Positions 26,671-33,027 of a stretch of 64,000 nucleotides of DNA are shown piece by piece. Position 1 is the stretch's first letter, and the number at the start of each line of letters is the position of its first letter. The notes beneath the pieces were generated by a model, which saw only the letters and a list, made by a program, of their open reading frames with translations, was not told the origin of the DNA and did not search any database. The position numbers and the translations under genes were made by a program. This DNA is from Clostridia bacterium (GTDB lineage Bacteria; Bacillota; Clostridia; Christensenellales; CAG-917). The DNA is taken from contig JAFTSA010000004.1 in assembly GCA_017461985.1 (NCBI GenBank), positions 262,053 through 326,052 of the forward strand, written 5' to 3'.

Positions 26671-27003
26671 GTGTGCGAGATTAGTCTATAAGCCGAGTTC
26701 TGTCTTGAACGGTCATCTATCTAGGCGGTACGTTGCCGTATCGCTCAAGCGACTTGTGGAGCGGGCGGGCAACCCATATTGCTCCGTGTCTTGCATCGGG
26801 TGGGGTTTACATCGCGCCTCGTCACCGATTTGCGGGTGAGCTCTTACCTCGCCTTTCCATCCTTACCCGAGTGTTCGGGCGGTTTTTTTCTGTTGCACTT
26901 TCCTTAAAGTCGCCTTCACAGGCATTTCACCTGCACCCTTGCCCTGTGATGCTCGGACTTTCCTCACGGTATTACTACCCCGCGACCGTCCGGCTAACTC
27001 GCA
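26671..27003 (-). ncRNA. rnpB: RNase P RNA
   Basis: The minus strand carries the universally conserved P4 strands GAGGAAAGTCCGAGC (26965..26951) and ACAGAACTCGGCTTA (26703..26689). A P1 helix pairs GCGAGTTAG at the 5' end with CTAATCTCGC at the 3' end. It has its own promoter and terminator. The only ORFs here are spurious plus-strand ones. Ends are within about 5 nt. Confidence 0.88.
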
Positions 27004-30777: not shown

Positions 30778-30897
30778 ATGATAAACACTCTTCTTTGCAT
30801 TGATGATTTTACAGTCAGCGTACTGGGCGGTGTGGCTGGACTTGCAGTTGCAGTCATCATCATCGTCGTTTGCATTGTAAAAAAGAAGCGCCACTAA
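30778..30897 (+). CDS. 39-aa hydrophobic peptide with a basic C-terminus (candidate leaderless small membrane protein)
   Basis: My translation: MINTLLCIDDFTVSVLGGVAGLAVAVIIIVVCIVKKKRH. It is below the 60-aa cutoff of the ORF track. One TM helix followed by KKKRH. The perfect promoter puts the start site at or next to the ATG. A terminator hairpin lies downstream. Confidence 0.4.
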   Translation: MINTLLCIDDFTVSVLGGVAGLAVAVIIIVVCIVKKKRH

Positions 30898-30940
30898 TTG
30901 ACGCCTGTTTTATAGTTCTAACTTTCAAAACAACTAAATT

Positions 30941-30980
30941 GCAAACAAAAAAATCAACCAAAGGTTGATTTTCTTTTTTA
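30941..30980. terminator. Bidirectional terminator shared by tlyA (minus) and the small ORF (plus)
   Basis: AAATCAACC AAA GGTTGATTT, flanked by an A-run on the left and TTCTTTTTT on the right. Confidence 0.7.
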
Positions 30981-31691
30981 TTTGCTTTTTTTCAAGTGCA
31001 AAAGATACTCCACGTTTTTGTTTTCATAAAAGATTGGTGAGGTTGTAAGCCCTAAAACATCAAAACCACTTGAAACTGCGTATCCTTTTACTAGGTTGAT
31101 TGCTCTTTGTCTGTCCTTTTCATTTAGGACAATGCCCTTTTTGCTGAGGGCAGACTTTTCAAGTTCAAATTGAGGCTTTATGAGGACAACCGCTTCTCCG
31201 CCCACTTTCAATAATTTGAATATTGAGGGCAAAATAAGGCGAAGTGAAATGAAACTGACGTCACTGCATACAAAATCTTTCAAGGAATCCACAACAAGAT
31301 CTCGTGCATTTTGCTGTATAAAAGTGACTCTACCGTCGTTTAGAATACGCTCGGGCAAATCGCATTCTGCCACGTCAACTGCAAGGACAGAATTGACGTT
31401 TTGACGAAGCATCACGTCGGTGAATCCACCGTTGCTGCAACCTATATCTGCGGTGTCAAATCCTTGAAGATTAAGGTTGAAAGCACGGATTGCTTCAACA
31501 AGTTTGTATGCGCCTTGTGAAGCGTAGCCTTCGTCTTCAATTATCTCAACAACCATACTCTCTTTAACGTCAAAAGACGGCTTCAAGATAACTTTGCCGT
31601 CTAATTTGACTTTGCCTTTCAGAACAAGGTTTTCCGCATAAGTCCTTGAAGGCGTAAGGTTATTTTCAGTGAGATACTTGTCAATCCTCAA
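30978..31691 (-). CDS. tlyA: TlyA-family rRNA (cytidine-2'-O)-methyltransferase (S4 plus FtsJ domains)
   Basis: LRIDKYLTENNLTPSRTYAENLVLKGKVKLDG (S4 domain) and DIGCSNGGFTDVML SAM motif. Start uncertain. The track start at 31796 is a TTG 116 nt inside the upstream gene. An in-frame TTG at 31691 sits just before the S4 domain. Confidence 0.85.
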   Translation of the reverse strand: MRIDKYLTENNLTPSRTYAENLVLKGKVKLDGKVILKPSFDVKESMVVEIIEDEGYASQGAYKLVEAIRAFNLNLQGFDTADIGCSNGGFTDVMLRQNVNSVLAVDVAECDLPERILNDGRVTFIQQNARDLVVDSLKDFVCSDVSFISLRLILPSIFKLLKVGGEAVVLIKPQFELEKSALSKKGIVLNEKDRQRAINLVKGYAVSSGFDVLGLTTSPIFYENKNVEYLLHLKKSK

Positions 31692-32382
31692 CGTTTTGCT
31701 TTTCCTTTTCTTCTTCGAATTTCTTTTGTTTTTCTTTTTGATGTTTGCGTCTACGTCTTTCTTCAGGATTGAAGATTGCAATAATTCGTGCCACAAACAT
31801 TATGAACTCTTTTGAGTTGGATATAGCAATGTTTTTAAGGAACGCCTTGCCACCAATAGTCAGTGCTGAAACAAGGGCTGATATGCCAATTGTCACCCAT
31901 TGTTGCCACTTTTGGTCCATACCAACCACAAGTTTAACAACAATTGCTGCCGAGCAAGCACCGGAAATTATGCCGAAAATATCTCCTATGACGTCATTGC
32001 AGACATTGGACACTTTCTCGTTGTTTTTGACAAGCCATAGCGCTGTCTTTGCACCATATACCTTGCGTGACGCCATTGACACAAAGGGAGTAATATCGCA
32101 GGAAGTTGATGCAACGCCGATGCCGTCAAACAAAATACTGCACAAAATCAGGAAGAACAACAGCATTATTGTGACGATGATATGTTCACTTGATGCCGTC
32201 AGTTCGCTAAGAAAACTGATAAACGCAGAAATAAATAAAGAAACAACCGTAATTTTCACGCTCCAAAGGTTGCGCTTCTTTTTCGGTTGCTTTTTCTGTT
32301 TCTTTTCGTCTTGAGAAATAGGACGAGTTTCTTCGTCCTTGTTGATGCCTATACTACTGTGGCCGTCCTCTTGTTTTTCCAT
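31681..32382 (-). CDS. Four-TM membrane protein, OapA-like (OLE-associated protein candidate; possibly DUF21-like)
   Basis: ATG at 32382 preceded by AGGAG. Four hydrophobic segments (ITVVSLFISAFISFL, IIVTIMLLFFLILCSILF, IGDIFGIISGACSAAIVV, VTIGISALVSALTIGG) with K/E-rich tails. Immediately 3' of the large RNA candidate. The track's upstream TTG extension to 32484 runs into the RNA and is discarded. Confidence 0.6.
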   Translation of the reverse strand: MEKQEDGHSSIGINKDEETRPISQDEKKQKKQPKKKRNLWSVKITVVSLFISAFISFLSELTASSEHIIVTIMLLFFLILCSILFDGIGVASTSCDITPFVSMASRKVYGAKTALWLVKNNEKVSNVCNDVIGDIFGIISGACSAAIVVKLVVGMDQKWQQWVTIGISALVSALTIGGKAFLKNIAISNSKEFIMFVARIIAIFNPEERRRRKHQKEKQKKFEEEKEKQNVED

Positions 32383-32402
32383 ATTTCTCCTAAATTGATT
32401 GA

Positions 32403-32992
32403 AATGGTGGCAACAATTCGAGTAAACCTTGCGCCATAGGTTCGGTAGGTTTTCCCGAAGCAACAACTTGTCGTCGCCGACCAAGACGTTTCCGATTACG
32501 TTGCAACCAGCGTGGTTTCCCTACGCTTCACCGAATCGCCACTAAGTGCACACTATAATCCCCGAACTGCTTACGAGAACAGTCTAGAAGATTTCCTTGG
32601 CAACATCACTCCGACCTAGTCCTGTTTTGCAGTCAAGATTTCAAAAGGCCATCGGCAAAGTCCGTCGGCCGACGAACGATAACCGTTCCTTTATCCCTGC
32701 GAGACCACTCAAGGCAGGCTACACTGTCCACAGCGCACGAGCCACCGCATGACAGGTTTAATCCCAGTCAGTAGACCATTCATCTAGAATATGTCCACCG
32801 ATTTGGGTCTCCACGACGATTGGGTCGCCCTTCGCATGCCGTTGCGACACGCCCAAAAGCCTTAACTCCCAGCAACAGCCCAAGTTTGGGCAACAAAAGC
32901 CATCACCAGAAACTTCATCGATATGCCCTTTGGCGATATTTTACCCCCGCCTTCGGTTCGGATAATGCTGACTAGAATACTGCGCCACCATT
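32403..32992 (-). ncRNA. Large structured non-coding RNA candidate, OLE-like (about 590 nt)
   Basis: No ORF of 60 aa or more in any frame across 32485..33147, although the DNA is more G+C-rich than its flanks. It has its own consensus promoter. The 5' AAUGGUGGC (32992..32984) is complementary to the 3' GCCACCAUU (32411..32403). Many GC-rich hairpins. The context (4-TM gene, tlyA, nadK, argR, recN) matches published OLE loci. Not checked against a covariance model. Confidence 0.55.
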
Positions 32993-32999
32993 CAACTAT

Positions 33000-33027
33000 A
33001 TTATACATAATAATGAAAAAATGTCAA
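33000..33027 (-). promoter_or_regulatory. Predicted promoter of the large RNA / 4-TM protein transcript
   Basis: On the minus strand: TTGACA (33027..33022; a second overlapping TTGACA at 33034..33029), 16-nt spacer, TATAAT (33005..33000). Confidence 0.6.

Follow-up and report, generated by a model that had tools for sequence, protein, structure and literature searches.

The open reading frame at positions 31681..32382 on the minus strand of the window, by which we mean the whole 64,000-nucleotide stretch of DNA analyzed here, is oapA, and its 233-residue product (ATG at 32382, TGA at 31683-31681) is an orthologue of OapA. The explanation that best accounts for the observations overall, and that we consider very probably correct, is that this is a four-helix inner-membrane partner of the OLE RNA and likely a Mg2+-handling module. 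OapA is described in the literature as a protein with four transmembrane helices that binds OLE and localizes it to the membrane (PMC11332333, PMC12265935), and the Halalkalibacterium halodurans protein is reported to bind OLE RNA at a ratio of at least 2:1 and to bring the RNA to the membrane (Block et al. 2011).

The identification is carried by homology to proteins encoded next to OLE in other bacteria. A survey of 150 genomes sampled across the phylum, 151 with that of the window, found OLE in 113. From this survey were taken the 30 best OLE loci, which come from many families, all other than that of the window, and every one of them has an ORF of 183-214 aa starting 6-178 nt after the RNA. 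All 30 ORFs match, in hmmsearch, an HMM of the close family of the window protein (E 1e-31 to 7e-54), and blastp comparison of the window protein with them gives 33-44% identity (E 5e-17 to 3e-41). The window protein is therefore homologous to canonical OapA. Relatives of the protein are encoded at 59 loci in a species-level genome collection, with OLE directly upstream on the same strand in 50 and elsewhere in the genome in 2 more; for 6 no OLE was found in the genome, of which at least 2 may reflect assembly gaps. The loci of the relatives were searched with single-sequence nhmmer and the 8 nhmmer-negative loci rescanned with cmscan, which were also negative; the genome searches used a pre-filter, and L055 was covered through its whole genome only. 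The preliminary description had proposed an OapA-like partner of OLE, to be checked by homology to OLE-adjacent proteins and by co-occurrence with the upstream RNA across genomes. Both comparisons bear the proposal out, as do the presence of the DxxxD motif and the overall architecture.

With the OapA proteins BH2780 of H. halodurans and CLB_RS09010 of Clostridium botulinum, the window protein has in common its position directly 3' of ole, four predicted transmembrane helices, of which TM3 carries DxxxD, basic residues on the presumed cytoplasmic face, a faint likeness to the CNNM/DUF21 domain, and no soluble domains. It differs in length, 233 aa against the 183-214 aa of the sampled canonical proteins, in an N-terminal extension of ~38 residues that ends in a poly-Lys cluster, and in its neighbors, recG and tlyA, where canonical loci have ispA and dxs. 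The order across the phylum is ispA-ole-oapA-dxs; more distant members of the clade of the window have recG-ole-oapA-dxs-tlyA, and the closest members, like the window itself, recG-ole-oapA-tlyA-nadK.

The 233-aa ORF is a real gene, with 957 database proteins matching its product at E <= 0.001 and the closest homologues sharing its N-terminal start, M-EKQED. The ATG at 32382 is preceded, after a 4-nt spacer, by a Shine-Dalgarno sequence AGGAG (32387..32391, minus strand; read from the sequence), so that the start noted in the preliminary description is indeed there. The ORF listing also contains a longer frame of 267 aa from a TTG at 32484, and the true gene might in principle be this one, with the 3' end of the supposed upstream RNA being coding sequence. 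A similar N-terminal extension, "...ILPNLWRKVYP...", occurs in two database proteins (P0093 and P0101); against this, the extension falls within the Rfam match to OLE, among its paired helices, it is absent from 28 of 30 aligned homologues, and an AGGAG-ATG start is available at 32382. Such conservation as the extension has is explained by that of the RNA. We regard a coding 3' end as vanishingly improbable and have rejected the 267-aa frame, which runs through the paired, conserved 3' domain of OLE, as an artefact.

The RNA itself is full-length. Rfam model RF01071 matches 32391..33004 on the minus strand over model positions 1-616 (425.3 bits, E 1.6e-121), and the gap between the end of the match and the ATG of oapA, on the same strand, is 8 nt. 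The unpaired 3' tail of the model reaches the Shine-Dalgarno sequence of oapA, which shares one base, the last of the match, with it. According to the cmscan alignment, 29 nt separate the ATG from the closing helix, whose 3' strand stops near 32412; a conserved CCAC comes after the helix and finishes ~24 nt ahead of the start codon. The preliminary description had put the helix at about 20 nt from the ORF, which is approximately correct.

A promoter and terminator scan suggests that ole, oapA, and tlyA may be made as one transcript. A consensus scan places a promoter-like site, TTGACA and TATAAT separated by 16 nt (12/12 matches), at 33000..33027 on the minus strand, at the 5' edge of the Rfam match, and just upstream of it a terminator-like hairpin that ends recG (33090-33071, minus strand). 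The same scan found no terminator-like site between OLE and oapA, nor any on the minus strand before the hairpin and T-run at 30886..30906, where the first such site downstream of the 33027 promoter is met. Between oapA and this hairpin lies a tlyA-type rRNA methyltransferase gene with S4 and FtsJ domains (30978..31691, minus strand; Pfam FtsJ 3.2e-31, S4 1.1e-9). Its start is probably the TTG at 31691, to judge by the sequence and the M-R-L-D of the L056 homologue, which would make it overlap the end of oapA by 11 nt. With a promoter before ole and the first terminator only after tlyA, the predicted unit is ole-oapA-tlyA, running from 33027-33000 to 30906-30886. For H. halodurans, the ole cluster has been reported as one polycistronic transcript.

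The four hydrophobic helices of the preliminary description are recovered, one of them less strongly than the rest. By the Kyte-Doolittle scale with a 19-residue window, segments 44-62 (1.86), 67-85 (2.83), and 135-153 (2.26) pass the classical threshold, and 163-181, the fourth, reaches a moderate 1.56 (1.95 when the window is shortened to 15 residues). An AlphaFold2 model computed from a 30-sequence alignment (mean pLDDT 72.9, the tails being of low confidence) has four long helices, H39-62, H65-94, H121-154, and H158-188, besides short helical stretches within the 95-120 loop and, at low confidence, a C-terminal helix spanning 206-232. There are 8 K/R and 1 D/E in residues 26-40, 5 K/R in loop 2 (residues 93-129), 4 K/R in the segment after TM4, and 11 K/R and 9 D/E in residues 206-233. 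By the positive-inside rule, the N-terminal lysine cluster, loop 2, the post-TM4 segment, and the C-terminal tail are placed in the cytoplasm, so that OapA would be an inner-membrane protein with both ends and loop 2 on the cytoplasmic side and only the short loops 60-68 and 153-161 outside.

Among 84 OLE-associated homologues, D86, D130, G133, D134, G178, K179, and K183 are each 100% conserved, and at least 88-100% of these proteins keep the motifs DxxxD, FD.IG.A, and GGK..K. The DxxxD motif, D130-V-I-G-D134, lies at the start of TM3 (31981..31995, minus strand) and is conserved in homologues, with D130, G133, and D134 invariant in the close-homologue alignment. It has been named as the hallmark of OapA (PMC11332333), and its two aspartates are the residues mutated in the dominant-negative PM1 protein (PMC7936274). 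Charged residues inside the membrane that are as fully conserved as D86, D130, D134, and K179 point to a function in the bilayer itself.

The charged termini reported earlier, KKQKKQPKKKRN and ERRRRKHQKEKQKKFEEEKEKQ, are both found in the protein, and the K/R and D/E counts agree. At the N terminus, a basic cluster, KKQKKQPKKKR (residues 27-37; 32272..32304, minus strand), directly precedes TM1, and K35, K36, N38, and W40 are invariant or nearly so in the clade; the same is true, among the basic residues, of K107, K112, K119, K179, K183, R209, and K213. At the other end is a K/R/E-rich tail (residues 206-233; 31684..31767, minus strand), in which the clade conserves PEERRR..K, the remainder being variable and of low complexity. 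Canonical OapA has here an amphipathic post-TM4 segment that finishes in a short basic stretch (median 19 aa, 6 K/R, 2 D/E), whereas the clade of the window has instead the K/R/E-rich tail (median 34 aa, range 11-125, 12 K/R, 8 D/E). Within the charged ends, conservation is limited to KKKRN.W at the N terminus and PEERRR..K in the proximal part of the tail; farther out, the sequence is of low complexity and its length differs between proteins. The juxtamembrane basic clusters are thus constrained, while no sequence conservation is seen along the long K/E-rich stretches. Two features are specific to the clade, the longer K/R/E-rich C-terminal tail and the gene order recG-ole-oapA-tlyA. It is plausible that the basic tails make putative contacts with RNA, a suggestion that echoes published speculation on a cytoplasmic basic cluster.

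A resemblance to DUF21/CNNM modules had been offered in the preliminary description as an impression, and several comparisons now put figures to it. Pfam CNNM (PF01595, formerly DUF21) matches residues 74-204 with E 4.6e-7 and 30.1 bits, just above the gathering score of 28.4, over profile positions 2-127 of 181, and homologues carry the database names "DUF21 domain-containing protein" and "Mg2+ and Co2+ transporter CorB". The first four Foldseek matches of the AlphaFold2 model are MtCorB (7M1T, chains B and A, and 7M1U) and the CorC transmembrane domain (7CFG); they are weak (E 5.5e-3 to 0.57, TM-score 0.34-0.47), and below them is noise. In hhalign, 60 OapA sequences compared with residues 1-230 of 12 MpfA-type proteins, found via their CorC_HlyC domain, align with a probability of 84% (E 7.8e-6) over 142 columns, OapA residues 66-209 corresponding to CNNM 7-159. 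An NCBIfam scan of the protein gave nothing near any cut-off, and when the family alignment was used as a sequence profile against the PDB, neither CorB nor CorC came up, the only return being a chance match to PurE (E 0.13). The relation to CNNM is visible only via Pfam, fold search, and profile-profile comparison. Fernando & Breaker 2024 had already described OapA as a protein with weak CNNM homology, a DxxxD motif, and a missing proline, with 7M1U as its top structural match and four transmembrane helices against three (PMC11332333).

The alignment also defines where the two families part. OapA TM2-TM4 align to CNNM TM1-TM3, which leaves OapA TM1 as an additional helix. The segment G178-K179-A-F-L182-K183 (31834..31851, minus strand) is aligned by hhalign to the motif G-E-x-x-P-K in the last transmembrane helix of CNNM proteins, with lysine in place of glutamate and leucine in place of proline, and DxxxD, which is absent from CNNM domains, aligns to the "Q.G" region of CNNM TM2. 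The glutamate of the GE..PK motif is a ligand of Mg2+ in CorC. Its replacement by Lys179 means that the CorC-like Mg2+ site is not conserved. The 233-aa protein ends 29 residues past its last hydrophobic segment, and a Pfam scan found in it neither a CBS nor a CorC_HlyC domain, which marks it as a distant relative rather than a strict member of the MpfA/CorB family, whose proteins carry tandem CBS domains and a CorC_HlyC domain. What OapA has in common with MpfA, CorB, and CorC is probably the transmembrane fold, a distant likeness seen by Foldseek, Pfam, and hhalign, and a physiology, tolerance of Mg2+, that the literature links to both.

These data bear on whether the gene could instead encode a stand-alone Mg2+/Co2+ transporter of the CorB/CNNM type that acts independently of RNA and whose place beside ole is only a matter of synteny. 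The Pfam score over its cut-off, the names CorB and DUF21 in source databases, and the rank of CorB and CorC as best structural matches would all fit such a protein, and a few related genomes keep the gene without OLE, so that RNA-independent activity may exist. We nevertheless consider it very unlikely, since the CBS and CorC_HlyC domains are missing, GE..PK reads GK..LK, DxxxD is specific to OapA, most relatives are linked to OLE, and OLE-adjacent OapA proteins (E down to 7e-54) are matched much more strongly than CNNM (E 5e-7).

Given that the protein is OapA, it may still be asked whether it does anything more than hold the RNA. Were it to serve OLE only passively, as a shield or as an anchor in the membrane, it would have no ion-related activity, and its likeness to CNNM would be an evolutionary relic; the loss of the CNNM glutamate and proline agrees with this, as does a literature in which RNA binding and membrane localization are the only activities shown for OapA. 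However, the polar intramembrane residues D86, D130, D134, and K179 are 100% conserved, the OLE-less genomes included, and a dominant-negative DxxxD mutant (PMC7936274) and Mg2+ sensitivity have been published. On balance, a purely passive role is unlikely.

The preferred reading, an OLE partner with a likely part in Mg2+ handling, can be set out as follows. In fold, OapA would be a reduced CNNM/DUF21-like transmembrane module, without CBS and CorC_HlyC domains and with an additional helix at its N terminus. By homology to the H. halodurans protein, OapA would dimerize and bind OLE RNA cooperatively, and binding would hold the ~600-nt RNA at or in the membrane to form the OLE ribonucleoprotein, which protects cells against Mg2+, cold, alcohol, and carbon-source stress; in recent cryo-EM work, the RNA is even proposed to span the membrane. 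Given the CNNM ancestry, the molecular role would most likely be a putative handling of divalent cations, in particular Mg2+, and the OLE RNA may supply the regulatory functions that in MpfA/CorB proteins belong to the CBS and CorC domains. For the OapA of the window, the analysis establishes position, homology, motifs, likeness of fold, and co-occurrence with OLE, and RNA binding, dimerization, and physiological role are presumed from the literature.

The genome from which the window comes measures 1.41 Mb in 10 contigs and is 98.5% complete. Its sole CNNM match is oapA, and no CorC_HlyC match was found anywhere in the assembly, which makes it a genome with OLE and OapA and without an MpfA-type protein. 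OapA is published to anticorrelate with MpfA. Among 40 other genomes, which are related rather than independent and therefore give a tally only, a CorC_HlyC protein is present in 9 of 9 without OLE and in 12 of 31 with it; this agrees in direction with the anticorrelation in the literature. The genome also has one Ribosomal_L7Ae match (C8:3255-3482, 29.7 bits), for which the candidates are OapC/YbxF or YlxQ; according to the literature, the gut clade with reduced genomes usually is without OapB or OapC.

Adjacent OLE is absent from nine of the 59 relatives, which differ among themselves. Two genomes (L051 and L052) have a full-length OLE elsewhere, without oapA after it. Of the six in which OLE was not found, one is a closed chromosome of 1.53 Mb (CP091734.1, L056), where oapA begins ~35 nt after the preceding gene and is followed by tlyA. 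In L054, L057, and L058, the genes run xseA-ispA-oapA-dxs, and no more than roughly 60-130 nt separate oapA from ispA. Short gaps of this kind mean that the slot of ole is empty in all four. Their proteins keep every intramembrane conserved residue and deviate at loop 2 residues whose conservation elsewhere is 88% or more: P99, G110, and A111 in four of four and A114 in three of four. The same proteins deviate at N129 and G89, each in three of four. The remaining two, L042 and L055, have a canonical loop and possibly stem from incomplete assemblies. The pattern suggests that ole was lost, oapA retained, and loop 2 relaxed, and is to be taken as a lead, as it comes from pre-filtered genome searches and involves only two independent lineages.

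A tentative extension of the mechanism, one that we hold to be possible while rating it as fairly unlikely, joins these relatives to the clade-specific ends of the protein. In this clade, which is without MpfA, the enlarged poly-Lys N-terminal cluster and the long K/R/E-rich C-terminal helix may have taken over RNA-contact or RNA-folding roles that belong to accessory proteins in other bacteria. Loss of the loop 2 motif (P99, G110, A111) in the OLE-less L054 and L056-L058 would, in turn, mark loop 2 as an RNA-dependent surface and the membrane core as RNA-independent.

Much of this is already known. The gene of the window matches published OapA throughout, and the likeness to CNNM has also been published (PMC11332333, PMC12265935); for the window itself, the finding matters little beyond the fact that a gene labeled "DUF21 domain-containing protein" or "CorB" in databases can now be annotated as oapA. 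A gut Clostridia genome of 1.4 Mb has a complete OLE-OapA device and no MpfA-type transporter, which fits the published anticorrelation. The only lead that is even mildly new lies outside the window, in the OLE-less relatives with a decayed loop 2. Genomes that have oapA and no detectable ole are natural experiments that may separate the RNA-dependent surface of OapA from the function of its membrane core.

The 5' limit of oapA in the window is complicated by an open frame beginning at TTG 32484 (-), which crosses the 3' domain of the OLE RNA and continues into oapA to give a product of 267 amino acids. This frame was rejected because the extension (window 32383-32484) is translated OLE RNA. 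The equivalent N terminus ('...ILPNLWRKVYP...'), which is present on two database homologues of OapA, P0093 and P0101, is a recurrent gene-calling artefact. At the other end of oapA, the gene for the tlyA-type methyltransferase probably starts from a TTG codon and shares the final 11 nt of oapA (window 31681-31691 (-)); this overlap suggests that the two genes are translationally coupled. The longer tlyA of the ORF listing, reaching 31796, was discounted, being produced only by the absence of an intervening stop. Some 5 kb downstream of the oapA region, after recN and in the same orientation, lies a bacterial class A RNase P RNA (window 26672-27001 (-), 245 bits).

No OLE RNA was detected in six oapA-bearing genomes (loci L042, L054, L055, L056, L057, and L058). 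In four of these, the canonical ole slot beside the oapA homologue is empty: L054 (2926-3579), L057 (2980-3630), and L058 (2941-3621), where the genes run ispA-oapA-dxs, with ispA and oapA ~60-130 nt apart, and L056 (2962-3576), a closed chromosome (CP091734.1) with the order xseA-oapA-tlyA. All four proteins retain the DxxxD and GGK..K core and have lost the loop-2 residues Pro-99, Gly-110, and Ala-111, which are conserved across OLE-linked OapAs.

A different arrangement is found in two genomes (oapA loci L051 and L052), where ole and oapA are unlinked. Full-length OLE (371-397 bits; L060:1501-2122 and L061:1501-2124) is followed by a MarR-like or NAD synthetase gene, and the oapA homologue is located elsewhere, before dxs.

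The genome carrying the window (1.41 Mb, 98.5% complete) has a single Ribosomal_L7Ae-family match (contig C8, 3255-3482, locus L093; 29.7 bits), which could be OapC/YbxF or YlxQ. Its sole CNNM match is oapA itself (window 31771-32163), and no protein with the CorC_HlyC domain that marks MpfA-type proteins was found in the whole genome. Across a 40-genome sample, such a protein is encoded by all nine OLE-less genomes, compared with 12 of the 31 that bear OLE.
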